From: an uncultured bacterium
Lineage (GTDB): Bacteria; Chloroflexota; UBA5177; JANWHV01
Direction: 5' to 3'
DNA: 64,000 bases
Assembly: GCA_963729625.1 (NCBI GenBank)
Contig: CAVSOU010000014.1
Location: 5,096-69,095 of the forward strand
Positions 5,608 to 22,786 of this stretch are shown one piece after another (position 1 is the stretch's first letter; every line of letters begins with the position of its first letter). The notes below the pieces were generated by a model. That model had not been told where the DNA came from and did not search any database. It saw only the letters and a program-made list of their open reading frames with translations. A program made the position numbers and the translations under genes.

Positions 5608-6543
5608 TTGCAGGCCGATCGTCCAGCCACTCCGGCGCTGCGCGATGCACCGGCCGCGCCGGCTTCAAGCTGGGCATGCTGTTCTTGCTGCCCGCCTTCC
5701 TGGTTCTGGCCGTGTTCTTTCTGGGCCCGGCGGTGTACGCGGTCTACGTCGGCTTCACCAACATGTCCCTCACGGGTATCGGCGCGGCGACTCCGTCCTG
5801 GGTCGGCCTGGACAACCTCCATCAGATTCTGAGCGACCACCAATTCTTCGACTCCCTTCGCGATCTCGTTGACCTATCTGGTGGGCTCGGCGCTGATCGG
5901 TCAGGCCGCGCTGGGCATGCTGCTGGCTCTTTTGATGAAGAACCGGCGCCCGGTGTTTAAGACCGATTCTGGGCGGCATCATCGTGGCCTGCTGGGTGAT
6001 CCCCGACGTGGTGGCAGGGTACCTGTGGTTTGCCTTCCTCCACGCCGACCTGATGGGTCTCGGCACGGGAAGCGGGCTCTTCAACTCCATCGTCGGCGTG
6101 TTCGGCGTCCCGCAGCGCGCCTGGCTGCAGGACTTACCCATGGCCTCGATTATCGTGGCCAACACGTGGCGTGGTACAGCCTTTTCCATGCTGTTGTACG
6201 CTTCGGCCCTGGAGGGCATCTCCCCCGAGCTTCTGGAAGCTGCCTCGATCGACGGGGCGGGACTATGGGCGAGGGTGCGCAAGATCATCTTGCCGATGCT
6301 CAAGGGGACCATTGCCACGGATCTGCTGCTGATCACGCTGGCCACCCTCTCCGACTTCACCCTCGTCATGGTGCTGACCGGTGGTGGTCCGGGCTTCGAT
6401 ACCCAATTGCTGACGATCTACATGTACCAGCACGCGTTCAAGTTCTATGAGCTGGGCTACGGCACGGCAATAGCTCTGCTGATCATTCTGGCGGGCGCGA
6501 CCTGTCCCTTCTGTACATTCGCGTTTTGCGCGTGGAAGTGTAG
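5608..6543 (+). pseudogene. ABC sugar transporter permease 1 (MalF/UgpA-like), disrupted by about 4 frameshifts
   Basis: TTG 5608 follows GGAGGAG at 5593-5600. Permease-like sequence (FKLGMLFLLPAFLVLAVFF; LTYLVGSALIGQAALGMLLALLM; ACWVIPDVVAGYLWFAF...EAASIDGAGLWARVRKIILPML) requires frame switches near 5645-5665, 5850-5860, 5960-5970 and 6495-6502. Confidence 0.7.
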
Positions 6544-6554
6544 GAGGCGATGCC

Positions 6555-7386
6555 GTGAGACACCGTACGATTCGCTCCCGGCGCGGCCGGTCGCGTACGC
6601 GCATCCTGACCGTGCTTGGCCTCTTCTTCGTGCTGCCGTTCATCTGGGTCATCGTGGCCAGCTTCACCTTGAACGCCAACCTTGGCACGGTCTGGTTCAC
6701 CGGCTTCAGCCTCGACAACTTCCGCTACCTGATCGACAACGGCTACATGGAACGGCTTCAAGCAACAGCATCGTGCTGGGGGTCAGCACGATGGTGCTGA
6801 TGGTCGTGCTGAGCTGCGGGGCGGGCTATACGCTGTCGCGCTACCATTTTCGCTTCAAGCAGACGGTGATGCTCTTGATTCTGTTCTGCACCGGCCTTCC
6901 CGTTCTGGCTTTGATATTCCCTCTGTATGCACTGTATGTTCGCCTGAACCTGATCGACTCGACGCCGGGTGTGGTCCTCTTCTTCGTCGCCTCGGGCCTG
7001 CCGTTCAACATGTGGCTGATGAAGAACTTCCTCGACTCAGTTTCCATAGAGCTGGAAGAGGCGGCCTGGGTCGACGGGTGTTCGACATTCGGCTCGTTCG
7101 TGCGCGTAGTGCTTGCCGCTCTGCGCGCCAGGCATTGCCGTGGTCGGCATTTTCAGTTTCGTCGGCGCCTACACGAACTTCTTCGTGCCGTTCATCATCT
7201 ACAGCAGTGCCGGACAAGTTTCCCGCCTCCGTCGAGCTGTTCAGCCTGTTCGGCAATTACGGTCAGGTCAACTACGCTCAGCTTGCCGCCTACGCCATGA
7301 TGTACGCGCTGCCTGCGGTGGCGCTCTATATGTTTGTTTCGCGCTTCTTCGTCAAGGGTCTCAACGTCGGCGGCACCAAGGGATGA
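6555..7386 (+). pseudogene. ABC sugar transporter permease 2 (MalG/UgpE-like), disrupted by at least 3 frameshifts
   Basis: GTG 6555 follows TAGGAGG. The segments LTVLGLFFVLPFIWVIVASF / NSIVLGVSTMVLMVV...EEAAWVDGCSTFGSF / LPLCAPGIAVVGIFSFVGAYTNFFVPFIIYSSA / DKFPASVELFSLFG...FFVKGLNVGGTKG* lie in different frames. Switches fall near 6745-6765, 7108-7115 and 7205-7215. Confidence 0.7.
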
Positions 7387-8399
7387 GTGCGGGCCGTCTT
7401 GCCGCGATGGTCATCCTCGCGTTCTGTACCGGTCTCTTCCAGGAAACTCCGGTAGTCGCGCGCGCCTGCGTTGCATCGGTTCGGTCGTCGATGGCACTCC
7501 CCGGCCGCGTGGATAGCCTCGCAGCGGCGAGCGCAGGAGGCGTGGCCGTCGCCGAGGTCGGAGCGCGGGGCTCCACCATCATGTATCTGCCGCACGACAC
7601 ACTCGAGGTCGTGACGCTTACGGGCAACGGCTCGGCGCACGCCATTTCCACGCCTCAGTACTCCACTGCGCCCGGACTGGCACGATCCGCGCAGAGCAAA
7701 CTGCTCTACGCGCTTGCCGGGTCCACGCTGTACACGATCAATGGGGCGGATGGTCGCCTGTTGCGCAGGCAGGTGCTGTCGCTGCTGCCGGTCGGTTGGC
7801 CGGCGGCGATCGCCGCCGGGCCGGGTCGGGATCTGTACGTCGTGGGTCAGATAGCGAATGCCGAGGCCGCACAATTGTTCGCTTTCGATGCGGCGCCTGA
7901 CTTTAGCGTGCATGTGCGCTGGCGTGTCGCGCTCGGATATACGCATGCGGGGATCTGGATCGGACAGGCCGGGCGTGACGTACTGGCCGTCTATCTCCCG
8001 GACCAGCACGATTTGAGCGGCACGATCAGCCTGCTGGACACGGCGACAGGGGCACAACGCGCGTCCTACACGGCGCCGATGCCACCCATGGCTGCAGATC
8101 CTGACATCGATAGGCTGTATTTCTCAGGCGCCGGGCATATTGAAGCGCGAAGTCTGAGCACCGGGTCGCTCGCGGCGTCCGTCGATGGTGATCCTCCAAT
8201 GGCAGTTAGCGACATGGACAAAGTGGCATTCGTACGCGCCGGCCGGATTGTGCTGGCCGAGGGAAAGAGTCTCCAACCCACCAAGACAGTTCTGTTTCCC
8301 GAAGGACTGGCGCCTACAGCGCTCGCCTGGCACGGATCGAATTTGCTGGTTGGCAATGCCCATGGCATTGTTCGCCTGAGCCTCGGTGGATGCACGTGA
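7383..8399 (+). CDS. Hypothetical exported protein, possibly beta-propeller-like
   Basis: ATG 7383 overlaps the permease-2 stop (ATGA). The N-terminal hydrophobic segment is MSAGRLAAMVILAFCTGLF. No catalytic motif was recognised. Repeated G-x-LY/ hydrophobic-strand patterns are present. Confidence 0.55.
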   Translation: MSAGRLAAMVILAFCTGLFQETPVVARACVASVRSSMALPGRVDSLAAASAGGVAVAEVGARGSTIMYLPHDTLEVVTLTGNGSAHAISTPQYSTAPGLARSAQSKLLYALAGSTLYTINGADGRLLRRQVLSLLPVGWPAAIAAGPGRDLYVVGQIANAEAAQLFAFDAAPDFSVHVRWRVALGYTHAGIWIGQAGRDVLAVYLPDQHDLSGTISLLDTATGAQRASYTAPMPPMAADPDIDRLYFSGAGHIEARSLSTGSLAASVDGDPPMAVSDMDKVAFVRAGRIVLAEGKSLQPTKTVLFPEGLAPTALAWHGSNLLVGNAHGIVRLSLGGCT

Positions 8400-12422: not shown

Positions 12423-12560
12423 GACCAGGCGTGACGAGTCTCGGCCGGATGCGTGTACGACTGGTCCGGCGCATGTCGCGGAAGGCGAGCCCGCTATGCG
12501 CCCAGTAGACCAAGGAGAATTCGCATGAAGCGACACCATTTGGCGTTCCTGAGCGATCTG
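12423..12560 (+). repeat. 138-bp leader cassette, copy A (5' UTR + RBS + first 12 codons MKRHHLAFLSDL)
   Basis: Aligns without gaps to 16560-16697 with roughly 9 mismatches by hand alignment. Confidence 0.85.
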
Positions 12561-14108
12561 CGGCGCGTGACCCTCGCGTCCGTCCTCTGCGTTACACTTG
12601 CCAGCACCGCACTGACGGTACACGCGCAGGGCCTTACTCCAACCGCCCTGTCATTGGCTGCCGCTGCACCGGCACCTACCGCGACGACCACAGCGCCGCC
12701 CACGAGCACGTCCCTGCTCACCGGCAGCGTGACACCAATGCCGCCGACCAGTAGCCCAACCCCGCCGCCGAACTCTACGGCCGTGCTCCCAACTTCGACG
12801 ACCACGGCAGTGCCGTCAACTACTCACACGGCGACACCTTCTCCAGCAGCAACTCCGCGCCCGTGTTCGACCGGCACGATGGCGGCGCTGCTGCGCTGTA
12901 TCGAGCCAAGCATGCTGCGCGTGGCTGCGCGAGGCGCAGGTGGCACTCGTTCCGGCACGGCCTTTGTGGTGCGCGCGGACTCGTCTGGCTCCTACGCGCT
13001 GGTCACCGACAGTGTGGTCCAAGGCATCAGTCCCGGTCGTATTACCTTGACTTCTCTTGACGGCAAGGCGCACTATGCCGTGACCACTGTGCGAGCGATG
13101 CACGCACGAGGCGGTGGCACTGCTGACCTGGCGCTGCTTCGCCTCTTCCCGGCTCACATGGTAGCGCTTGCCTGGGGCAACTCCACGCAGCTGAAAGTCG
13201 GCCAGGCGGTGGTCAGCCTCTCCGCCGGCCAAGCTGGCGCGGCGCCCAGCGTCGTGGTGGACACCATCTCTGCCCTGCACTGCGACCGCGGCGACGGCCT
13301 GGGGCGCTTCTGGATCCGGCATGGCGCCCTTACGGCGAAGAGCGCGCCGGGCGGGCTGCTACTTGCCCGGGACGGAAGCGTCGTCGGACTCAACGTGCAG
13401 CAGACCGCCGGCACGGGGCTTTTCGCTATCCCGGCTGCCAGCCTCAAGGCTGCGGTTACTTCGATGTTCACAGTCATCCAGGCCCAGCTGCCCACGGCGT
13501 CGCCGACACCAACGGTCCCGCCGTCCGCCACGGCCTCGCCCTCGGCGACCGCCACGGCGATTCCGACCGCTACTCTACCGCCGACGGCGACGGCGACGAC
13601 ACCGCCCGCGGCGACGGCGACGACACCGCCCACGGCGACGGCCAGTGCTACTGCCACTGCGGAGACCACCACCTTCGCCGCCAGCGGGTACACCATTCAG
13701 CTGCCTGCAGGGTGGGCGTCTACCAACGTCGGTACGACGCTCGGGTTCCGAAGTGCGGACAACCTGGTCACACTACTGGCCGGAGTCTTTGCCAGCTCGC
13801 CGGGTTACGCGCAGAGCGACATTTGCCAAACATTAGCGAACAGCGTGGCAGAAGCAGTCATCGATTTCGCCAATCAAGGCATGCAATTCACCGCGATGAG
13901 CAATTGCCAACCACAGTCCATCGGGTTGTTGTCCGGCTACGGCCTCACGTTCACCTACACCAAGTCGGGAGTGGCCTGGACCACCTTCATCGGCCGCGGG
14001 ACGGATGGCACCCACAACATAGACGTCTCGTACAGCTATCCCGCAACGACACCTGACGCAGAGATTCAACTGGCAGCTGCGATGACTGCATCGATACGAA
14101 TCACATAG
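12525..14108 (+). CDS. Secreted modular protein P1: signal peptide, PT-rich linker, degenerate trypsin-like (S1C-like) domain, PT/A linker, ~145-aa C-terminal module
   Basis: ATG 12525 follows AAGGAG at 12512-12517. The signal peptide reads MKRHHLAFLSDLRRVTLASVLCVTLASTALTVHAQG. Trypsin_2-like blocks GTAFVV...LVTDSVV...DLALLRL...KSAPGGLLLARDGSVVGLN are present. The C-terminal block begins GYTIQLPAGW. Confidence 0.8.
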   Translation: MKRHHLAFLSDLRRVTLASVLCVTLASTALTVHAQGLTPTALSLAAAAPAPTATTTAPPTSTSLLTGSVTPMPPTSSPTPPPNSTAVLPTSTTTAVPSTTHTATPSPAATPRPCSTGTMAALLRCIEPSMLRVAARGAGGTRSGTAFVVRADSSGSYALVTDSVVQGISPGRITLTSLDGKAHYAVTTVRAMHARGGGTADLALLRLFPAHMVALAWGNSTQLKVGQAVVSLSAGQAGAAPSVVVDTISALHCDRGDGLGRFWIRHGALTAKSAPGGLLLARDGSVVGLNVQQTAGTGLFAIPAASLKAAVTSMFTVIQAQLPTASPTPTVPPSATASPSATATAIPTATLPPTATATTPPAATATTPPTATASATATAETTTFAASGYTIQLPAGWASTNVGTTLGFRSADNLVTLLAGVFASSPGYAQSDICQTLANSVAEAVIDFANQGMQFTAMSNCQPQSIGLLSGYGLTFTYTKSGVAWTTFIGRGTDGTHNIDVSYSYPATTPDAEIQLAAAMTASIRIT

Positions 14109-14789
14109 CGTGCACGGGCCAGGGCAGATGGGACGGTTCGAGCGGGGACGGTAGGAAATCGTCAGCGCCGTGCCGCGGGAAAGCACGGCTCGCGCAACGA
14201 ACCTGGAGGTAGGCTGACGTCGTGACTGGTCTCAGCAGGTACTCGCCGGCCGCGTATCGACGCTGATCACACCCGTTCCTCTCGCCGTCCAGGTTGCCGC
14301 CGGCCTATCCGTGCTCGCGTCGAGTGTTTCTGCTTTGGCATCGCGCCGGCAAAGGGGTAGGTTGCCGTGCCGCGATCGGCATGGTGAGGGAAGCTCGAGG
14401 ATGAACGGCATTGCGGAAGGCTACGGCCACTGCGGAGAGCGGCTGTTCGCCATCGCGACCCAAGCCCTGGTTGTGGCTGCGGCTCCAATTGGCTCGTTGC
14501 AGTTCAGGGGGCTCCGCGGCCCCGGATGAGAGTTCCGTACAGTGTTAGGCCTGTCGGTGAGAGTGCTTCGACCGCTAGTCTGGGCGTGCGGGTGGGGTGG
14601 ACATCCTCGACGACCGCCCTCCAATCCCGCAGATTCTGGGGAGCGCGGACATGAGTGCTGCCACGATGGACGACCACCGGCCGGAGGGCGGTTCAGCTGA
14701 CTGTGTGGCGACGACCTCACCGCGCGAGCATTTCGGGGCAACCTCGGGATCGTGCGCTTGAGGCGCCGTGCAGTTGAAAGGAGTTCACC

Positions 14790-16523
14790 ATGCGTCGCGT
14801 ACTTGCTCTGCTGCTATTGACCTTCGTGTTACCGCCACCGCTGGCTCTTGCGGCCGTGTCTCCGGCGTCGCGCAACCTCGCATTGTCCGGATCTTCTGCC
14901 GGTCACTCGGCAGGAGGTGAGGTCCTGTCTGCCCCGCTGACGTCGGCAGCCCACACCGCGGGATCTCAACCCGGGTCTGAAGGCAGCGCTGCCAGTGTCA
15001 CTACAGCCACTGTGACTGTCACGCCAACAACCACGATCACGGCTGCGGCCACGATCATGCCGACGTCCACCATCACGCCGACGGCCACTGCCTCGCCGCA
15101 ACCCCTGTTCATCGTGCTCAACGATCCCAAGGGCGTGAAGGGTACCCAGGCTCTCGGCATCAACGCGCAGGGGGATATCGTGGGGACCTACACGGATCGC
15201 GCGGGCGTCTGCCACGGGTTCCTGCGGCATCAAGGACGCTATACCACCGTCGATGATCCGAAGGGCGCGCTGGGCACCCGAGCCCTTGGCATCAACCCGC
15301 AGGGAGATATCGTAGGCTACTATGTCGACCGCTCCGGTACTGACCACGGGTTCCTGCGGCACCAGGGACGCTACACGCCCATCGACGACCCCAAGGGCGT
15401 GCAGGGCACCCAGGCCTTGGGCGTCAACGCACAGGGCGATATCGTGGGGTACTTCCTCGATAGCGCCGGCACCAGCCACGAGTTTCTGCGGCGCCTGGAC
15501 CGTTATACCACCGTTGGTACTCCAAAGCCCTGGCAGGGCGCCGTTGCCGTGGGCATCAACGTGCAGGCCGATATCGTGGGAACCTACACCGACAGTGCCG
15601 GCCTCGCCCACGGGTTCCTGCAGCACCTGGGTCGTTACACGACCATCGACGACCCCAACGGTGTAAAGGGCACCGATCCCTTTGGAGTCAACACGCAGGG
15701 GGATATCGTGGGTTACTACGTCGACAGCGCCGGCACCGATCACGGGTTCGTGCGGCACAAGGGCGCCTTCACCACGATCGATGTTCCCAGCGGCGTGAAG
15801 GGCAGCCAGGCTTCGGGCATCAACCCCCAGGGGGACATCGTGGGGGGATACACAGATCGGGCCGGCATCGGGCATGGGTTTCTGCTGCGCGCGGCCACCG
15901 CTACCCCCACGGCCACTGTGACAGCCACGCCGACGGGCACCGCGACGGCCACGCCCTCGCCGACTGTCACTGCCACAGCAACCGCCTCGCCGACCTTCAC
16001 CGCGACGAGCACCGCCTCGCCGAGTGCCACCGTTGCTCCTTCCGCGACCGCGACCATACCGCCGAGCCCAACGGCAACCGCTACCACGATGACCCCGCCT
16101 ACAACCATCTACAGCGGATCGGGTTTCAACGCGACGGTACCCCCCGGCTGGGTCTCCGCGCCCAATCCCAATGGCTACATGGGCTTCTCAAGCCCGGACA
16201 GCTTCGCCTACGTGGGAGTCCTGGTGCAAGCCGTGCCGAGCGGATTCACCTCGGACGAGATCCCGGTGCTGCTCCTCGTGGCGGCCTTGCAGACAGGCGC
16301 CCATATCACCGGCACGGACCAGCCAGTCACCATAGGCTCGCTGGCAGGCGACTCATTGGCGTGCACTTCCTCAGATGGATCAGTCGCCTTCACGCTCTAT
16401 CTGGTGACCGACGGCGTGCATGCACTTATCCTCCAGAGCAATTCCATGCCGTCCGCGACGCCGGCCGACATTCAGGAGGCCGCTCAGCTGGTCGCTTCGA
16501 TCACGCCCAACAACAACATTTGA
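14790..16523 (+). CDS. Secreted modular protein P2: signal peptide, TA/PT linker, six 44-aa HAF-like repeats, PT linker, shared C-terminal module
   Basis: ATG 14790 follows AAAGGAG. The signal peptide reads MRRVLALLLLTFVLPPPLALA. The repeat unit is DDPKG-x-GT-x-A-x-GIN-x-QGDIVG-Y-x-D-x-x-G-x-x-HGFL-x-H-x-G-x-YTTI. The C-terminal block begins GFNATVPPGW. Confidence 0.85.
   Translation: MRRVLALLLLTFVLPPPLALAAVSPASRNLALSGSSAGHSAGGEVLSAPLTSAAHTAGSQPGSEGSAASVTTATVTVTPTTTITAAATIMPTSTITPTATASPQPLFIVLNDPKGVKGTQALGINAQGDIVGTYTDRAGVCHGFLRHQGRYTTVDDPKGALGTRALGINPQGDIVGYYVDRSGTDHGFLRHQGRYTPIDDPKGVQGTQALGVNAQGDIVGYFLDSAGTSHEFLRRLDRYTTVGTPKPWQGAVAVGINVQADIVGTYTDSAGLAHGFLQHLGRYTTIDDPNGVKGTDPFGVNTQGDIVGYYVDSAGTDHGFVRHKGAFTTIDVPSGVKGSQASGINPQGDIVGGYTDRAGIGHGFLLRAATATPTATVTATPTGTATATPSPTVTATATASPTFTATSTASPSATVAPSATATIPPSPTATATTMTPPTTIYSGSGFNATVPPGWVSAPNPNGYMGFSSPDSFAYVGVLVQAVPSGFTSDEIPVLLLVAALQTGAHITGTDQPVTIGSLAGDSLACTSSDGSVAFTLYLVTDGVHALILQSNSMPSATPADIQEAAQLVASITPNNNI
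15120..15890 (+). repeat. Tandem in-frame array of six 132-bp (44-aa) HAF-like repeats
   Basis: The periodicity was read directly in the translation of 14790..16523. Confidence 0.85.
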
Positions 16524-16559
16524 TGTGTTACCTCAGGGCACAGCAGCAGCGAAGGCACG

Positions 16560-16697
16560 GACCAGGCGTGACGAGTCTCGGCCGGATGCGTGTACGGCTG
16601 ATCCAGCACATGTCGCGGAAGGCGAGCCCGCTATGCGCCCAGCAAACCAAGGAGAATGCACATGAAGCGACACCATTTGGCGTTCCTGAGCGATCTG
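16560..16697 (+). repeat. 138-bp leader cassette, copy B (followed by a truncated 42-codon ORF 16663-16791)
   Basis: Copy of 12423-12560. After codon 12 the ORF diverges (MKRHHLAFLSDL|MVGWACREQ...) and stops 14 nt before the P3 start. Confidence 0.85.
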
Positions 16698-16804
16698 ATG
16701 GTCGGCTGGGCCTGCAGAGAGCAACTGGTGAAACCGGCCACGACCGTCGTCGTGTGTCGGTTTCTTGTGGCCGGCGAAGACGCAATGTAGGTGGGAGACA
16801 TCTG

Positions 16805-18790
16805 ATGTCATCTTTTCGGGAACTAAGTACTGGTGGGTTCCGGTACCTGCTGCTCGTGCTCCTGCTCGGGATGGTCGCGCCACTCTTCCCAGGTAAAGCG
16901 AGGGCGACACCAGCCAGCGACGTGGACACGCCCGTAATGCTCCCCGACTCCACATGTACCGGCGCACTGAGTTCTGGGATGCTGTTCCTCATTCCCGGTA
17001 ACTTCAACCAATTCCCCTCGGGGACTGGCACCGTGTGCGCGGATGTCTCCACCTTCGGCCTCGCCGCCGCGGCAGTTGGGGTAGTGATTTACAGCAGCGC
17101 TGGGCAGGTGGTGTACCGAACGCCGCCAGGCTCGACCGCCACAGGATATCTCGACTTCGGCGGGGGCGCGTACGACGTGATGTTTACCGGGCTCTGCTAC
17201 CAAAACGCGTGCAATACTATCTGGCCGGACGGTGGGTATCTAACTGACGTCCTCCTCAATGGCACAGTCGCATCGACGGTCAACTGGACAGTAGGGACCG
17301 CCACACCGCCACCAGCACCGACGGACACGGGCACCAGCACGCCACTCCCGACCGCAACCTTTACCCCGGTGCCGCCGACCGCGACGCCGCTACCACCTAC
17401 CAGCACGCCGCCACCGCCGACCGCGACGCCGGTGCCCACTGTTCCGCTCCCCTCGGTCAGCACTGCGGCAACCACGGCGTACTTCGCCCACGGGAACACC
17501 GGCACCGCCAAGGTGAACGGCAAGGTGACCTTCACCGAACGCCTGTACTTGTACAATCCCGAAGCAACGCCCTCGAATGTGACCATCGCCTACGCGGTGT
17601 ACAATCCGGCAACCCAAGCCCGTACCACGCTCACAAAGCATCAAACGGTCGTGCCTGGTACGACGGTGTCGCGCCTGGTGAACCTGGATACTGGCAATGA
17701 CCGGATGGTAAGCGCCACGGTGATCGCCCCGGCGGGCATTGTGGCCGAAGAAGTCATCAGCCGTACCCGCGCCGACGGCACGGTTCTGGACTCCGACAGC
17801 AGTCTGGGCTGCGCTCGACTGTCCACGAGCTGGAATCTGGCCGAAGGCAATACCGGCGGCAGCATGGACGAGGACCTTACCCTGTATGACCCGGGTGATA
17901 GCCCCGCCCTCGCCCAGGTCCGCTACGCAGCCGGCACTGCCGCTTCCGTTCCTGTGCCTGCACACGGCCAAGTTACGCTCAACGTCGGCAAGCACCTGGG
18001 GCCTCTGGCAGCGAAGAGCGTTGCTGTGCAGGTCAGTTCGGACGTCGCCATTGCGGTCGATCAGGCGATGTATTGGGGCGACGGCAGCGGAATGGCAAAG
18101 TACGGCTACTCCCTCTCTCCAGCGATTGCGCTGGGCATGCAGAGCCAGTACTTCGCCCTGCTGCCTACGTCTGGCGGCTCGCAGTCGTTCGTTACCGTGC
18201 TGAACCCAAACGCGGGCAAGGTGCGTGTGACGCTAAGCGTATTCAACACCGTGGGCGCCACCCTCCGGACCGTGTCCGTAACGGTGGCCGGCCACGCCCA
18301 CACAGCATTCGCCGTATCGAGCCTGGTGTCCGGCGAACCCGGCTATGTCTCGGCAGGACTGGTGAGCACCCCGGCTGCAGTGGTGGCCGAAGCGAGCGTA
18401 TACTTCGGCGGCGCGCCAAACATCGGGCGCCGTCCCGGGCTGGTCATCCAGGGGAGTGCAGGTGCGCAGGTCGGCGCCCGTGCCGACGTCGACGCGCGCG
18501 GCGGTCAGCTGGGCATCTTCAATCCCAGCGCAAGTCCTGCACGTGTGCAGGTGCTCCTCGGCAGCAGCGTGGTCCGTGACTCGACGGTACCCGCGAACGC
18601 CACCGAAGTGATCCAGAATCCAGGCCGCAAGGAGTGCCCGCGGCGTGACGGTCTTGGCCAGCACGAATGTCACTGCCACGCTGATCAACGGAGGGCTTGG
18701 ACAGGTGCGCGCGTGGGGCGGTGTCGTGGGGTCCTCGTTGGTCTCTCCTGCAGTGACAGCCATGTCGACAGCAACGTTACCGCCTGCTAG
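16805..18790 (+). CDS. Secreted modular protein P3, N-terminal part: signal peptide, Cys-containing domain, PT linker, four ~100-aa beta-sandwich-like modules. The reading frame appears to break near 18612-18645.
   Basis: ATG 16805 follows GGGAG. The signal peptide reads MSSFRELSTGGFRYLLLVLLLGMVAPLFPGKARA. The modules end in ...IVAEEVI / ...AIAVDQAMYW / ...AVVAEASVYF. The last ~55 aa of this ORF are Arg/Cys-rich and look out of frame. Confidence 0.7.
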   Translation: MSSFRELSTGGFRYLLLVLLLGMVAPLFPGKARATPASDVDTPVMLPDSTCTGALSSGMLFLIPGNFNQFPSGTGTVCADVSTFGLAAAAVGVVIYSSAGQVVYRTPPGSTATGYLDFGGGAYDVMFTGLCYQNACNTIWPDGGYLTDVLLNGTVASTVNWTVGTATPPPAPTDTGTSTPLPTATFTPVPPTATPLPPTSTPPPPTATPVPTVPLPSVSTAATTAYFAHGNTGTAKVNGKVTFTERLYLYNPEATPSNVTIAYAVYNPATQARTTLTKHQTVVPGTTVSRLVNLDTGNDRMVSATVIAPAGIVAEEVISRTRADGTVLDSDSSLGCARLSTSWNLAEGNTGGSMDEDLTLYDPGDSPALAQVRYAAGTAASVPVPAHGQVTLNVGKHLGPLAAKSVAVQVSSDVAIAVDQAMYWGDGSGMAKYGYSLSPAIALGMQSQYFALLPTSGGSQSFVTVLNPNAGKVRVTLSVFNTVGATLRTVSVTVAGHAHTAFAVSSLVSGEPGYVSAGLVSTPAAVVAEASVYFGGAPNIGRRPGLVIQGSAGAQVGARADVDARGGQLGIFNPSASPARVQVLLGSSVVRDSTVPANATEVIQNPGRKECPRRDGLGQHECHCHADQRRAWTGARVGRCRGVLVGLSCSDSHVDSNVTAC

Positions 18791-19814
18791 CGGCACAGCT
18801 CAAGCACATGCGACTGTGACCGCGACGGCATCTGCGTTGGTCGTGGGGACGCCGACTGCCTCCGCCATCGCCACCGCCACCATTTCCGCGCCCACCTCGA
18901 TCGCCATGCCCAGTGCGACCGTCATGCCCACGGCCGGGGGCGCGTTCACGTGGACCGCTCGACAGTCGGGTACCAGCGCCTTGCTGAATGGCGTCGCCTG
19001 CCCAAGCGCCAACGCGTGCCTGGCCGTCGGCGACTCAAGCACCATCGTGAGCAGCTCGGACGTCGGCGCAACCTGGAGCAGCCGTCAGTACGGGACCAAC
19101 AACTACTTTGATGCCGTCACTTGCATCAGCAGCACTACGTGCCTCGTTGTGGGCGAGTACGGCACCATTCTGGCCAGCACCGACGGTGGGGCCACTTGGA
19201 GCAGCCGGCAGTCAGGCACCAACGACTGGCTGGCTGCCGTCACCTGCGCTACACCCAGCACCTGCGTGAGCGTGGGCGAGCCGGGTACTATCGTGGTTAG
19301 CGCCGACGGCGGCGCGACCTGGTCCAGCCGGCAATCCGGTACCATGCTCCCGCTGTGGGGCGTTGCCTGTCCGAGCGCCTCGACCTGCCTGGCCGTGGGC
19401 CAATCGGGCACGATCCTGGCCAGCACGGATGGCGGCGTCACCTGGACTGCCCGGCAGTCCGGTACCAGCAAGCACCTTGGTGCCGTCACCTGCGCAAGTG
19501 GCACAGCGTGCTTAGCGGTGGGCCAATCGGGCACTATCCTGGCGACCACCGACGGCGGCGCTACCTGGACCAGTCGGCAGTCCAATTCTGACTCTGACCT
19601 CTTCGGGGTCACTTGCCCAAGCACCAGCACGTGCCTGGCCGTGGGCACCCAGGGCACCATCCTGGCCAGCACGGACGGCGGTGTCACGTGGAGTAGCCGG
19701 CAGTCCGGCACCAGCATCCAATTCAACGCCGTTGCGTGCGCAAGCGGTGCTGCCTGCCAGGCTGTGGGGGACTCCGGCACCATCGAGTCCACTGTCCAAA
19801 CTGCCACTATCTAG
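18645..19814 (+). CDS. P3 C-terminal part: end of module 4, Thr/Ala linker, seven-bladed BNR/Ycf48-like beta-propeller
   Basis: The ORF begins with sequence that completes module 4 (GVTVLASTNVTATLINGGLGQVRAW). It then carries seven 41-aa repeats with S-x-D-G-G-x-T-W (BNR/Asp-box) motifs. AAGGAG lies 10 nt upstream of GTG 18645, so an independent start is also possible. Confidence 0.7.
   Translation: MTVLASTNVTATLINGGLGQVRAWGGVVGSSLVSPAVTAMSTATLPPASGTAQAHATVTATASALVVGTPTASAIATATISAPTSIAMPSATVMPTAGGAFTWTARQSGTSALLNGVACPSANACLAVGDSSTIVSSSDVGATWSSRQYGTNNYFDAVTCISSTTCLVVGEYGTILASTDGGATWSSRQSGTNDWLAAVTCATPSTCVSVGEPGTIVVSADGGATWSSRQSGTMLPLWGVACPSASTCLAVGQSGTILASTDGGVTWTARQSGTSKHLGAVTCASGTACLAVGQSGTILATTDGGATWTSRQSNSDSDLFGVTCPSTSTCLAVGTQGTILASTDGGVTWSSRQSGTSIQFNAVACASGAACQAVGDSGTIESTVQTATI
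18945..19811 (+). repeat. Seven tandem 123-bp (41-aa) BNR-type repeats, each with two conserved Cys
   Basis: The unit is W-[ST]-[SA]-RQSGT-x5-V-x-C-x5-C-x-AVG-x-x-GTI-x-x-S-x-DGG-x-T, read in the translation. Confidence 0.8.
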
Positions 19815-20161
19815 CAGGGAGCATTGGGGGTAGAGAGATATTGCACACGCGTCGGAGGCTCAAGCGAGCCAGCAATCTTTTGCCGGCGCTAGACTCAGCG
19901 CCGGTCCCGGGCACGCGGCTGCTGGCCGGGTGGGCGGGCGGTTGTGCAACCTGCTTTGGCCCCAACACTATCCAGCAGCGAGAGGCAGATCGTTATGAAT
20001 ATGCAGGTACTGCCGGCCAATGTGAGCGAAGAACATCGAGCGCCTAGCGCAGACCTCCGAAACGGTTGTCTGCCTCGCAACCAGCGATTGCTCACGCGAC
20101 TCGATTCCTTCTTCCTGACTGAAATAGCTCTGAAGCGCCATGAAGGTGAAAGGAGTTCCCC

Positions 20162-22786
20162 GTGCGTTGCGTAGTTGCTGTGTTCCTGTTGATCCTCGTA
20201 CTACCGGCGCCGCTGGCCGCTGTGGCCGCGTCCCCGGCGTCACGTCGCCCGACACTGTCCGCATTGCCGGCTCGTCAATCTGTCGTACGCGACGCTTTGA
20301 ACACGCCAGCGACGTCGGCGCCACACCCCGGGGAATCCCAACCCGTGCTTGAGGTCGCAGCGACCGCCGCCATCGCAGCCGCCGTGACCGTCATGCCGGC
20401 CGCCAACGCTTCGCCGGGTACGCAGCCCACGCCGCAGGATCGCTACGCCACCATCGATGATCCGGCCGGAGTGCAGGGCAGCGACGCCTATGGCATCAAC
20501 CCGCAGGGGGACATCGCAGGGTCCTACCTCGATGGCGCCCGTATCGCTCACGGGTTCCTGCTGCACCAGGGTAGCTACTCTCCCATCGATGATCCGAACG
20601 GCGTGCAAGGCACCCAGGCCATCGGCATCAACCCGCAGGGAGACATCGTAGGGGACGATACCGATAGCGCCGGCACCAAGCACGGGTTCCTGCTGCACGA
20701 GGGGACCTACACCACCATCGATGATCCGAGCGGCGTGCAGGGCACCCAGGCCTTTGGCATCAATCCGCAAGGGGATATCGTGGGGGAGTATACCGATGGC
20801 GCAGGCATGGGCCACGGGTTCCTGCTGCACCAGGGGACCTACACCACCATCGATGATCCCAATCGCGTGCAGGGCACCCAGGCCTTTGGCATCAATCCGC
20901 AAGGGGATATCGTGGGGGAGTATACCGATGGCGCCGGCATCTGGCACGGGTTCCTGCTGCACCAGGGCACCTATACCACCATCGATGATCCGAGCGGCGT
21001 GCAGAGCACCTTGGCTTCGGGCATCAACCCGCAGGGGGACATTGTGGGGGCCTACGCAGATGGCACCGGACTCTACCACGGGTTCTTGCTGCACGACGGC
21101 ACGTACACCACCATCGACGATCCCAAGGGCGTCCAAGGCACTCAGGCCTTTAGCATCGACCCGCAGGGAGATATCGCGGGCTCCTACCTCGATAGCGTCC
21201 ACACCCTGCATGCCTTCATGCTGAGCACGGTCAATATGGTCCAGGTCCAGGTCCAGCAGACGCCTACCCCGGCGGCTTCTCAACCCAGTCTTCAGGTCAC
21301 CGCTCCCGCAGCCACCACAGCCACCATGACTGTCACGCCGACGGCCACCGTCACGCCGACGGCCACTGTTACGCCGACGGGTCCGTACAGCACCATCGAT
21401 GATCCCAAAGGCGTGAAGGGCAGCGATGTCTACGCCATCAACCCGCAGGGGGACATTGTGGGGTACTACGCCGATAAAGCCGGCATTAACCACGGGTTCC
21501 TGCGGCACCAGGGCACCTTCAGCACCGTCGATGATCCGAAGGGAGTGCGGGGCACGCAGGCCCTGGGCATCAATCCGCAGGGGGATGTCGTGGGCGAGTA
21601 CTACGATGTATCAGGCGCCTACCACGGGTTCCTGCGCCACCGGGGCAAGTACACCACCGTCGACGATCCCAGCGGCGTGCAGGGCACGCAAGCAGTCGGA
21701 ATCAACCCGCAGGAGGACATCGTGGGGGCATACCACGCTGCCGACAGCGCGTACCACGGATTTCTGCTGCACCACGGACAGTACACCACCATCGACGATC
21801 CGAACGGCGTGCTCGGCAGCTGGGCCTTCGGCATCAACGCGCAAGGCGACATCGTGGGCGTGTACTACGATTTGTTCGGCAGCTACCACGGCTTCCTCCG
21901 GCACCAGGGGCGCTACACCACCATCGACGATCCGAAGGGCGCACAGGGCACCTGGGCGGAAGGCATCAACACGCTGGGGGATATCGTGGGGAACTACGTC
22001 GATAGTGCCGGCGCCAGGCATGGGTTCCTGCTACACCGGGGCCGCTACACCACCGTCGATAATCCGAACGGCGTACGGGGCTCCGAGAACGTTGGCGTCA
22101 ACCCGCAGGGGGATATCGTGGGGGACTACATCGATAGCGCCGACATCGAGCACGGGTTCCTGCGGCATGCGGTCGCCGCTGCTGCTAGCCCCAAAGCCGC
22201 CCTGACAGTCACGCCGACACCTACCGCTTCGCCAAGTGCCACCGAGACGAACACCCCTGCGGTGAGTCCCACCGTCGCTCCGTCCGCTACGCCAAGCGTG
22301 CCGCCGAGCCCGACCGCAACCGCTACCGCGACGGTTTCCCCGCCGGCGAGCAACTTTAGCGGCGCGGGCTTCGACGCGACAGTACCCAGCGGCTGGACCT
22401 CTGCGCCTGCATCCGGCGGCTTCACAGCCTTCTCAAGCGCGAACGGTGACGCCGTTGTCGGAGTGGAGGTGCGAGCGGTACCTAGCGGATTCGCACCGGC
22501 TGACATCCCGGCACTGATCACTAACTCGGCACTGCAATCGAGCCAGCAGGCGGGTTTCCAGATCACCGTTACCAATATGCAGGCGGTCACAATAGGCTCT
22601 CTGAACGGTTACTCAGCAACGGGCACCCCCTCGGACGGGTCAGTGACCTTTCGGTTCTACATTGTGACCGACGGCGTGCACTTGCTTATCGTCCAAAGCA
22701 ATTCTATGCCGTCCACGCTGCCGGCCGACATTCAACAGGCCGCCCAGCTTTTAGCTTCGATCACGCTGACTTCCGGGGCCGTGTAG
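20162..22786 (+). CDS. Secreted modular protein P4: signal peptide, two arrays of six 44-aa HAF-like repeats separated by a PT linker, then a PT linker and the shared C-terminal module
   Basis: GTG 20162 follows AAAGGAG. About 42 nt of upstream and start region resemble the P2 start. The signal peptide reads MRCVVAVFLLILVLPAPLAAVAA. One repeat ends in the literal HAF motif (TLHAFML). The C-terminal block GFDATVPSGW is homologous to that of P2. Confidence 0.85.
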   Translation: MRCVVAVFLLILVLPAPLAAVAASPASRRPTLSALPARQSVVRDALNTPATSAPHPGESQPVLEVAATAAIAAAVTVMPAANASPGTQPTPQDRYATIDDPAGVQGSDAYGINPQGDIAGSYLDGARIAHGFLLHQGSYSPIDDPNGVQGTQAIGINPQGDIVGDDTDSAGTKHGFLLHEGTYTTIDDPSGVQGTQAFGINPQGDIVGEYTDGAGMGHGFLLHQGTYTTIDDPNRVQGTQAFGINPQGDIVGEYTDGAGIWHGFLLHQGTYTTIDDPSGVQSTLASGINPQGDIVGAYADGTGLYHGFLLHDGTYTTIDDPKGVQGTQAFSIDPQGDIAGSYLDSVHTLHAFMLSTVNMVQVQVQQTPTPAASQPSLQVTAPAATTATMTVTPTATVTPTATVTPTGPYSTIDDPKGVKGSDVYAINPQGDIVGYYADKAGINHGFLRHQGTFSTVDDPKGVRGTQALGINPQGDVVGEYYDVSGAYHGFLRHRGKYTTVDDPSGVQGTQAVGINPQEDIVGAYHAADSAYHGFLLHHGQYTTIDDPNGVLGSWAFGINAQGDIVGVYYDLFGSYHGFLRHQGRYTTIDDPKGAQGTWAEGINTLGDIVGNYVDSAGARHGFLLHRGRYTTVDNPNGVRGSENVGVNPQGDIVGDYIDSADIEHGFLRHAVAAAASPKAALTVTPTPTASPSATETNTPAVSPTVAPSATPSVPPSPTATATATVSPPASNFSGAGFDATVPSGWTSAPASGGFTAFSSANGDAVVGVEVRAVPSGFAPADIPALITNSALQSSQQAGFQITVTNMQAVTIGSLNGYSATGTPSDGSVTFRFYIVTDGVHLLIVQSNSMPSTLPADIQQAAQLLASITLTSGAV
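20444..21224 (+). repeat. HAF-like repeat array 1 of P4 (six 132-bp units; units at 20701 and 20833 are about 93% identical in DNA)
   Basis: A direct 132-bp periodicity is present. GGGGACCTACACCACCATCGATGATCC recurs at 20701 and 20833. Confidence 0.85.
21380..22168 (+). repeat. HAF-like repeat array 2 of P4 (six 132-bp units)
   Basis: The periodicity was read in the translation (GFLRH / GFLLH every 44 aa). Confidence 0.8.

Follow-up and report, generated by a model that had tools for sequence, protein, structure and literature searches.

A shared C-terminal module in a cluster of four genes

We analysed a 64,000-nucleotide stretch of DNA (hereafter, the window) from an uncultured bacterium of the Chloroflexota (GTDB UBA5177; JANWHV01; GenBank assembly GCA_963729625.1, contig CAVSOU010000014.1, positions 5,096 to 69,095 of the forward strand), in which four consecutive genes on the plus strand, P1–P4, encode modular and putatively exported proteins, three of which (P1, P2 and P4) end in a related module of approximately 140 amino acids (aa), here called the tail (Table 1). 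A previous interpretation made from the letters alone (the sequence-only reading) had proposed this arrangement, and the listing of open reading frames (ORFs) agrees with it, with four same-strand reading units at the same coordinates; P3, however, is not a single ORF. The N-termini of all four proteins show a hydrophobic core of 12 aa (Kyte–Doolittle values of 2.3–3.6) after an initial basic segment, a signal-peptide-like appearance that matches the signal peptides proposed earlier and was recognized by a heuristic only, not by SignalP. Scanning of P1–P4 downstream of the signal peptide found no further hydrophobic segment of 19 aa and no lipobox, and we infer that the four proteins are exported. 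The layout of head, linker and tail was also read correctly, as a linker rich in Pro, Thr, Ala and Ser (PT linker) lies ahead of each tail (aa 318–392 in P1, 365–445 in P2 and 669–736 in P4).

The relationship among the tails is far beyond chance. A tblastn search found three copies within the 64 kb and nowhere else in the window, with 60% identity between the tails of P2 and P4 (E 1e-42) and 32–35% identity between that of P1 and those of P2 and P4 (E 4e-9 to 1e-11), which bears out the shared module that had been proposed by eye. All three tails open with G[FY]xxx[LV]PxGW, those of P2 and P4 share FxxYxVTDGVHxLIxQSNSMPS, and D-G-x-H is nearly invariant across the wider tail family described below. 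Whereas the opening and middle motifs stand as proposed, the closing motif ([TS]xPA[DE]IQ and following residues) is broadly right but fits literally in P4 only: P1 has a one-residue insertion (PDAEIQ), and in P2 (SATPADIQ) the Thr directly precedes the Pro with no intervening residue. The proteins then terminate in ...ASIRIT, ...ASITPNNNI and ...ASITLTSGAV. No curated model in Pfam or NCBIfam matches any of the three tails.

Table 1. Features of the P1–P4 cluster; positions count from the first letter of the window
Feature	Position	Strand	Content	Basis
P1 5′ region, ribosome-binding site (AAGGAGAA) and first 12 codons	12417..12560	+		repeat search, alignment, blastn
P1, 527 aa	12525..14108	+	signal peptide, PT-rich linker, degenerate HtrA-like Trypsin_2, PT linker, tail	
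P1 tail (aa 380–527)	13662..14105	+	predicted Mog1/PsbP-like alpha-beta-alpha sandwich	tblastn, AlphaFold2, Foldseek
P2, 577 aa	14790..16523	+	signal peptide, linker, six HAF repeats (aa ~105–367), PT linker, tail	
P2 tail	16101..16520	+		alignment, tblastn
Copy of P1 5′ region (16554–16697) and upstream ORF	16554..16790	+		repeat search, alignment
P3	16805..19814	+	signal peptide, N-domain, PT linker, middle modules, seven-repeat BNR/Ycf48-like propeller; no tail	
P3 N-domain, ~130 aa (aa 30–161)	16892–17287	+	Cys-containing; no Pfam family	
Extra A (AA where the intact allele has A)	18617..18618	+		window translation versus intact 1002-aa P0022
P4, 874 aa, GTG start	20162..22786	+	signal peptide, HAF array 1 (6 repeats), PT linker, HAF array 2 (6 repeats), PT linker, tail	
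P4 tail	22343..22783	+		alignment, tblastn

Predicted fold of the tail

AlphaFold2 modelling of the P1 tail from the three-tail alignment gave a model (predicted local distance difference test (pLDDT) 80.2, predicted template modelling score (pTM) 0.71) in which five strands, a long helix, five further strands and a C-terminal helix follow one another. Comparison of this model with the Protein Data Bank (PDB) by Foldseek gave 23 matches within a cut-off of E ≤ 1e-3, and these all belong to a single fold class; the probability was 1.0 for PsbP, CyanoP, SciW, LpqN, Mog1, Tsi3 and DcrB. The best was CyanoP (2xb3; E 6e-6, template modelling (TM) score 0.70), and the others included plant PsbP (1v2b and 2vu4), BT_1490, PnsL-type (NDH-PSI PsbP-like) subunits, SciW/Eag (SciW, E 1e-4), LpqN (6e5d; E 1.3e-4), the actinobacterial protein 3lyd from Jonesia (E 1.8e-4), Tsi3 (E 3.5e-4) and Mog1; DcrB (E 5e-3) and Mtc28 (4pws; E 2.5e-2) fell just below the cut-off. 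At the level of sequence, neither the three-tail profile nor a profile of the 18 tails found in the census below matched any PDB sequence significantly, and the 18-tail profile touched PsbP chains at a sub-threshold E of approximately 0.4, over profile positions 3–22, that is, exactly on the opening motif. The Pfam PsbP model was likewise touched by 2 of the 18 tails (best E 0.039, under the gathering score), and a distant relative of the family (P0015) reached E 2e-4 with PsbP_2 (21.8 bits against a cut-off of 27). The sequence-only reading had noted that the opening motif recalls the PsbP/DUF1795 (DcrB-like) fold, and both the structure prediction and the sub-threshold profile matches agree. 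The tail is thus, at the level of its predicted fold, a divergent and uncatalogued member of the Mog1/PsbP/DcrB (DUF1795)-like superfamily.

Members of the Mog1p/PsbP family have diverse functions, are often associated with membrane-anchored complexes and act by binding partners (PMC7716261). PsbP and CyanoP (PF01789 and PF18933), which give the best structural match and, through the opening beta-hairpin motif, the sub-threshold profile matches, are extracytoplasmic, non-catalytic binders that the tail is predicted to resemble; they are stand-alone proteins, however, whereas the tail is the C-terminal domain of multidomain proteins, has no photosystem context and scores below the gathering thresholds. 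DcrB (DUF1795), Eag proteins (SciW and EagT6) and Tsi3 share the fold class and act purely by binding a protein or a transmembrane helix, DcrB being envelope-associated (PMC7716261), but they are single-domain cytoplasmic chaperones or lipoproteins with TM scores of only 0.45–0.53 to the tail, which has neither a Pfam DUF1795 match nor type VI secretion genes nearby. LpqN, LpqT, Mtc28 and 3lyd have the same fold: LpqN, LpqT and Mtc28 are secreted or envelope proteins, from bacteria that also use proline-rich segments, and bind the ectodomains of membrane transporters (PMC8427324). They differ from the tail in being stand-alone lipoproteins or secreted antigens and show no relation to it at the sequence level, and no MmpL-type partner lies near the window genes.

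The tail belongs to a family of mostly inactive HtrA-like proteins

The head of P1 was described earlier as a degenerate trypsin-like domain, and this description stands. Its Trypsin_2 domain (aa 144–289) scores just above the Pfam cut-off (30.5 versus 27.6 bits) and HtrA models of NCBIfam, TIGR02037 included, match it in part, but the columns of the catalytic triad read S-D-P rather than H-D-S, such that neither the catalytic His-Asp-Ser nor GNSGGP is kept. No PDZ domain was found in P1 by Pfam. P1 is identical in sequence to a database protein (P0001).

To place the tail among known proteins, we searched the three-sequence tail profile exhaustively with HMMER against 1.84 billion cluster representatives at 50% identity (E ≤ 1e-3). 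This census yielded 18 proteins, one of them P1 itself; of 17 clusters inspected, 15 consist of a single member, and the sources are soil or peat metagenomes and metagenome-assembled genomes (MAGs). All close relatives with enough sequence to judge are of the P1 type, that is, a signal peptide, a linker, a Trypsin_2-like domain, a second linker and a C-terminal tail (P0003, P0004, P0005/19, P0006, P0010/20 and P0011, some with an extra N-terminal domain), and in three fragments (P0008, P0013 and P0014) the last part of a protease domain is still present before the tail. Fragment P0008 resembles a frameshifted relative of P0004. More distant are P0015–P0018, which are secreted or are lipoproteins and contain PsbP-like units in tandem, two or three per protein; a named distant relative is an Anaerolineae protein. 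Nothing found here overturns the sequence-only reading outright: the tail matches no enzymatic family, it is C-terminal in all close relatives, and it is carried by proteins with signal-peptide-like N-termini. A PT linker ahead of the tail holds for the window proteins and not for the family, in which linker length varies greatly: P0011 has a short one, P0004 hardly any and the divergent protein described next none. P0004 (locus L005, 10001–11635) also carries two tails in tandem (aa 220–362 and 390–533).

Among the census proteins, only P0011 keeps the H-D-S triad. It is also kept in a divergent protein of 838 aa that a metagenome scan found at another locus (L006; contig Ga0187876_1004545, 2200–4716), which combines a signal peptide, an RCC1-like propeller, an S1C protease domain predicted to be active (His, Asp and GNSGGP intact) and a divergent tail whose alignment with the 18-tail profile spans the full length, albeit at only 22 bits. 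As this tail lies under the detection limit of the census, the tail family is larger than 18. Outside the family, the protease domain is closest to that of conventional HtrA/PepD proteins, which carry PDZ domains, and the tail therefore stands where PDZ normally stands. Compared with HtrA, DegP and PepD proteases of the S1C family, P1 thus has the Trypsin_2/HtrA-like domain and a C-terminal domain in the PDZ position, but the triad is gone in P1 and most of its relatives, and a PT linker with a PsbP-like domain replaces PDZ. Judging from these comparisons, the native setting of the tail is the C-terminus of rare, Sec-exported HtrA-like (S1C) proteins of soil and peat bacteria.

Probable transfer of the tail onto HAF-repeat proteins

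The heads of P2 and P4 are built of HAF repeats (NCBIfam TIGR02913, 62.6 and 78.8 bits, respectively, against a cut-off of 22.65), six in P2 and 6 + 6 in P4 with an exact period of 44 aa, just as one six-repeat array in P2 and two in P4 had been read from the sequence. The P2 head is modelled as a six-bladed beta-propeller (pLDDT 95–98) whose Foldseek neighbours are fucose lectins (AofleA, AAL and AFL), the PknD sensor domain, NHL and TolB, and the heads of P2 and P4 are thus predicted to be lectin- or sensor-like six-bladed beta-propellers. More than 245 HAF relatives cover the P2 head only (38–63% coverage), and none of these relatives outside the window carries the tail: the closest are proteins of 318 aa with a signal peptide and six repeats that end after the last repeat, and others carry DUF4214, cytochrome c, LamG, FG-GAP or beta-helix domains. 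The expectation that HAF proteins normally end in PEP-CTERM was not borne out, as PF07589 occurs in only 2 of the 120 best relatives and the closest have no tail. The exact P2 and P4 sequences were not found in the protein collection, and a scan for the P2/P4-type tail motif gave no match in 185,579 species genomes or 241 million metagenome records.

P2 and P4 are themselves closely related, with repeats 60–88% identical at the DNA level and start regions 83% identical. In a neighbour-joining tree (without bootstrap), their tails fall inside the P1-type tails, next to P0002, P0003 and P0007 and not next to P1. The P2/P4 ancestor probably gained its tail in the source genome, and the simplest history suggested by these sequences would be one old transfer of a tail onto a HAF protein, followed by a duplication that gave rise to P2 and P4. 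Recent local copying of the P1 tail onto P2 and P4 was considered and rejected, given an identity of only 27–31% and the grouping with tails of other organisms. Within P4, the repeats of array 1 (20451–21146) share as much as 88% of their DNA sequence with one another, more than they share with the P2 repeats, which suggests a recent tandem duplication or gene conversion.

P3 and links among the four genes

P3 was proposed as one gene, and its location as one of four units is upheld, yet its 3,010 nucleotides (nt) do not form a single ORF in the window but two (frame 2, 16805–18790; frame 0, 18645–19814). One extra A at 18617/18618 (GATCCAGAATCC in the window versus GATCCAGATCC) cuts P3 into reading frames of 661 and 389 aa. 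The annotated 661-aa first part is present in the protein collection, where it clusters with a protein of 1,002 aa (P0022) from an independent Logan assembly that equals both window parts joined at ...EVIQIQAARSARG.... Because this intact form exists in an independent assembly, P3 is a real gene for a 1,002-aa protein, and the frameshift is either an assembly error or a strain-level mutation. The C-terminus of P3 matches PSII_BNR well above the Pfam cut-off (79.9 versus 27 bits) and is predicted to form a propeller of seven 41-aa repeats, five of which show strict SxDxGxTW boxes by regular expression, with a variant box (TTDGGATW) seen by eye in the P0022 sequence; the seven repeats agree with the seven-bladed BNR propeller proposed earlier and are BNR/Ycf48-like. 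Ahead of the propeller, the sequence-only reading placed four putative beta-sandwich-like modules.

Although P3 has no tail, several observations link it to the tail-bearing proteins. Its N-domain has homologues at the N-termini of two P1-type proteins, P0011 (E 5e-12) and P0003 (E 3e-5), and a gene homologous to its middle region (38% identity over 208 aa, E 6e-28) lies approximately 9 kb downstream of the gene for the P1-type protein P0020 in another organism (L002/L003, 20667–21608, contig Ga0187876_1000462). Furthermore, the 5′ region of P1 recurs upstream of P3 as a direct repeat of 144 nt with 93% identity; in the copy, the start codon at 16662 opens an upstream ORF of 42 codons (16662–16790), with 14 nt between its end and the start of P3. 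The duplicated region has no Rfam match and showed no unusual RNA stability on folding, and it may serve both genes as a promoter or leader. Taken together, the N-domain fusions, the P3-like neighbour and the shared 5′ region are hints, not proof, that the four proteins could cooperate.

Sorting signals, anchors and neighbouring genes

A constant C-terminal unit that stands behind a flexible linker on different heads is a feature that the tail shares with PEP-CTERM, LPXTG, the C-terminal domain (CTD) of type IX secretion (T9SS), SLH and dockerin modules, and the sequence-only reading had accordingly suggested an undescribed sorting or envelope-anchoring domain on a cassette-like family of surface proteins. 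The tail differs from these modules in fold and size, and there is no Pfam match to any of these families. No hydrophobic or basic terminal signal was seen in the tails, no hydrophobic segment of 19 aa occurring outside the signal peptides. T9SS CTDs are Ig-like beta-sandwiches of 80–100 aa, whereas the tail, which matches no such family, is predicted to be an alpha/beta domain with two long helices. No sortase, exosortase, rhombosortase or T9SS gene was found among the scanned ORFs of the window, within ±10 kb of the tail genes in loci L001 and L002–L005, or among the ORFs around the L006 gene. Nor does any gene recur beside the tail across the window, the four independent related loci (L001 and L002–L005) and the more divergent L006: the neighbours in related loci are unrelated metabolic, regulatory and peptidase genes, and no processing or anchoring gene is conserved in any of them. 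The window has three tail genes, each of the other loci a single one, and the range of cargo seen in them is very small for a modular targeting domain, with three proteins here and one head type elsewhere. The idea of a sorting domain is not supported by these findings, given a folded domain without a terminal signal, in tandem in P0004 and without a recurrent processing gene in the loci examined, and neither is that of a tag on a cassette of surface proteins, because outside the window the tail is essentially tied to one head, the mostly dead HtrA-like protease. Of the anchoring proposal, non-covalent docking to an envelope component is compatible with the fold.

Interpretation

We lean, with guarded confidence, towards the view that the tail is a non-catalytic binding or docking domain that is native to mostly dead HtrA-like proteins and was moved onto two HAF-propeller proteins. 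We infer its binding role and a partner shared among the tails. In such a scheme, each protein would be exported and its signal peptide removed, the Pro/Thr-rich linker would serve as a flexible spacer, and the tail would bind one common partner (that is, a protein or an envelope component), by which the pseudo-protease and propeller heads would be gathered at the same extracytoplasmic site. Several points weigh against this view. The function is extrapolated from the fold class alone, and members of that class do very different things; no tail reaches the gathering score of PsbP (PF01789), PsbP_2 (PF18933) or DUF1795; the tail model was built on an alignment of three sequences, and a second model of the tail, within full-length P2, is of low confidence (pLDDT < 50); and export is read from N-terminal hydrophobicity only. 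In addition, the census profile is shallow, the 22 bits of the L006 tail would be far under significance in a library-wide search, and the source genome may hold further tail-bearing proteins with other heads.

A special case of this docking view, and not in contradiction with it, is that the tail is a non-covalent envelope anchor that docks its proteins on the ectodomain of a membrane protein, a lipid or a wall polymer, with the heads displayed rather than released. We regard this narrower proposal as unlikely, although several points favour it: all three window proteins have the constant C-terminal unit behind a long flexible linker; P1, P2 and P4 possess no lipobox, transmembrane segment, SLH domain or LPXTG motif of their own; bacterial members of the fold are typically found at membrane-anchored complexes (PMC7716261); and LpqN, LpqT and Mtc28 bind the periplasmic domains of MmpL proteins (PMC8427324). 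However, no partner gene is conserved beside the family in the loci examined, the PT linker is not constant in it (P0011, P0004 and L006), and those members of the fold that are known from the envelope each depend on a lipid or transmembrane tether of their own rather than being anchors for others. The PDZ position of the tail, in a family whose nearest relatives are of the HtrA/PepD type, would instead suit a recognition or regulatory domain, a PDZ substitute that would bind peptides, unfolded proteins or a ligand and gate or target the head without any common partner. The nearly invariant D-G-x-H, the intact triad beside the tail in two members (P0011 and L006) and the groove-bound lipids or helices of some fold relatives (LpqN and Eag among them) are in keeping with such a role; nevertheless, most members are catalytically dead, which leaves no proteolysis to control, propeller heads unrelated to proteases bear the same tail, and the ligand site is putative only. 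We consider this reading rather doubtful.

A more far-reaching proposal, which we think improbable, is that the tail acts as one half of a docking pair in a non-covalent assembly system, so far undescribed, of a little-studied lineage of soil or peat bacteria. PsbP-fold tails on different heads (a dead protease and single and double lectin-like propellers) would plug into one common receptor and build a multi-protein extracellular or surface complex. The N-domain fusions with P3, the P3-like gene located 9 kb away from one of P1 type and the duplicated 5′ region would then be traces of the network, and the system would be a functional analogue of cohesin–dockerin or SLH display on a fold never used in this way, a comparison that we offer with little confidence. 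A true C-terminal sorting signal of the PEP-CTERM/exosortase, LPXTG/sortase or T9SS CTD type, recognized and perhaps removed by a dedicated machine, is very unlikely: a C-terminal position behind a linker on different heads in one cluster would suit it, but a 140-aa alpha/beta sandwich is neither a motif with a transmembrane helix and a basic tail nor a beta-sandwich CTD, the tandem tails of P0004 and the single tail gene per locus elsewhere do not fit, no sortase, exosortase, rhombosortase or T9SS gene was found in the loci examined or the window, and the family is tied almost wholly to a single head type. Finally, the frameshift of P3 in the window and the missing exact matches to P2 and P4 in the protein collection might raise the suspicion of a chance or low-complexity artefact, or of genes that are not real. 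This we dismiss almost entirely, as it is ruled out by tblastn E-values of 1e-9 to 1e-42 in a 64-kb search space, by confident domain models, that of the tail included, and by a census that found homologues in independent metagenomes and MAGs; P3, moreover, is intact in another assembly.

The tails form a sequence family that is held by no curated library and can now be assigned to a known fold, and a new domain model could be built from the alignment of the 18 tails. PsbP-like domains normally stand alone, whereas here one appears as the C-terminal module of secreted multidomain proteins, where it replaces PDZ in HtrA-like proteins that have mostly turned into pseudo-enzymes. The cluster as a whole attests to the shuffling of protease-like, propeller and PsbP-like modules, through genes with PT linkers, in a soil lineage that is uncultured. 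Should the tails have a partner in common, they would exemplify a new mode of assembly or display for extracellular proteins; otherwise, the tail would be one more lineage-specific binding domain.

Genomic surroundings of the cluster

The cluster is flanked on one side by a sugar ATP-binding cassette (ABC) transporter and a mannosidase of glycoside hydrolase family 38 (GH38), and on the other by an IclR regulator and inositol-catabolism genes. Its G+C content (0.63–0.66) is the same as that of these flanks, and no mobile-element genes were found among the window ORFs scanned; a horizontally acquired island was therefore rejected, and the term island, used in the sequence-only reading, holds for a gene cluster and not for a compositional island.

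Two non-coding gaps in the cluster are unusually long, one of 840 nt upstream of P1 (11685–12524) and one of 680 nt upstream of P2 (14109–14789), and neither contains an Rfam match or a convincing ORF. Elsewhere in the window, two long ORFs overlap in different frames, one with an ABC permease domain (5984–7300) and one without a Pfam match (7113–8399), and this overlap (5984–8399) may reflect another frameshift in the window assembly.

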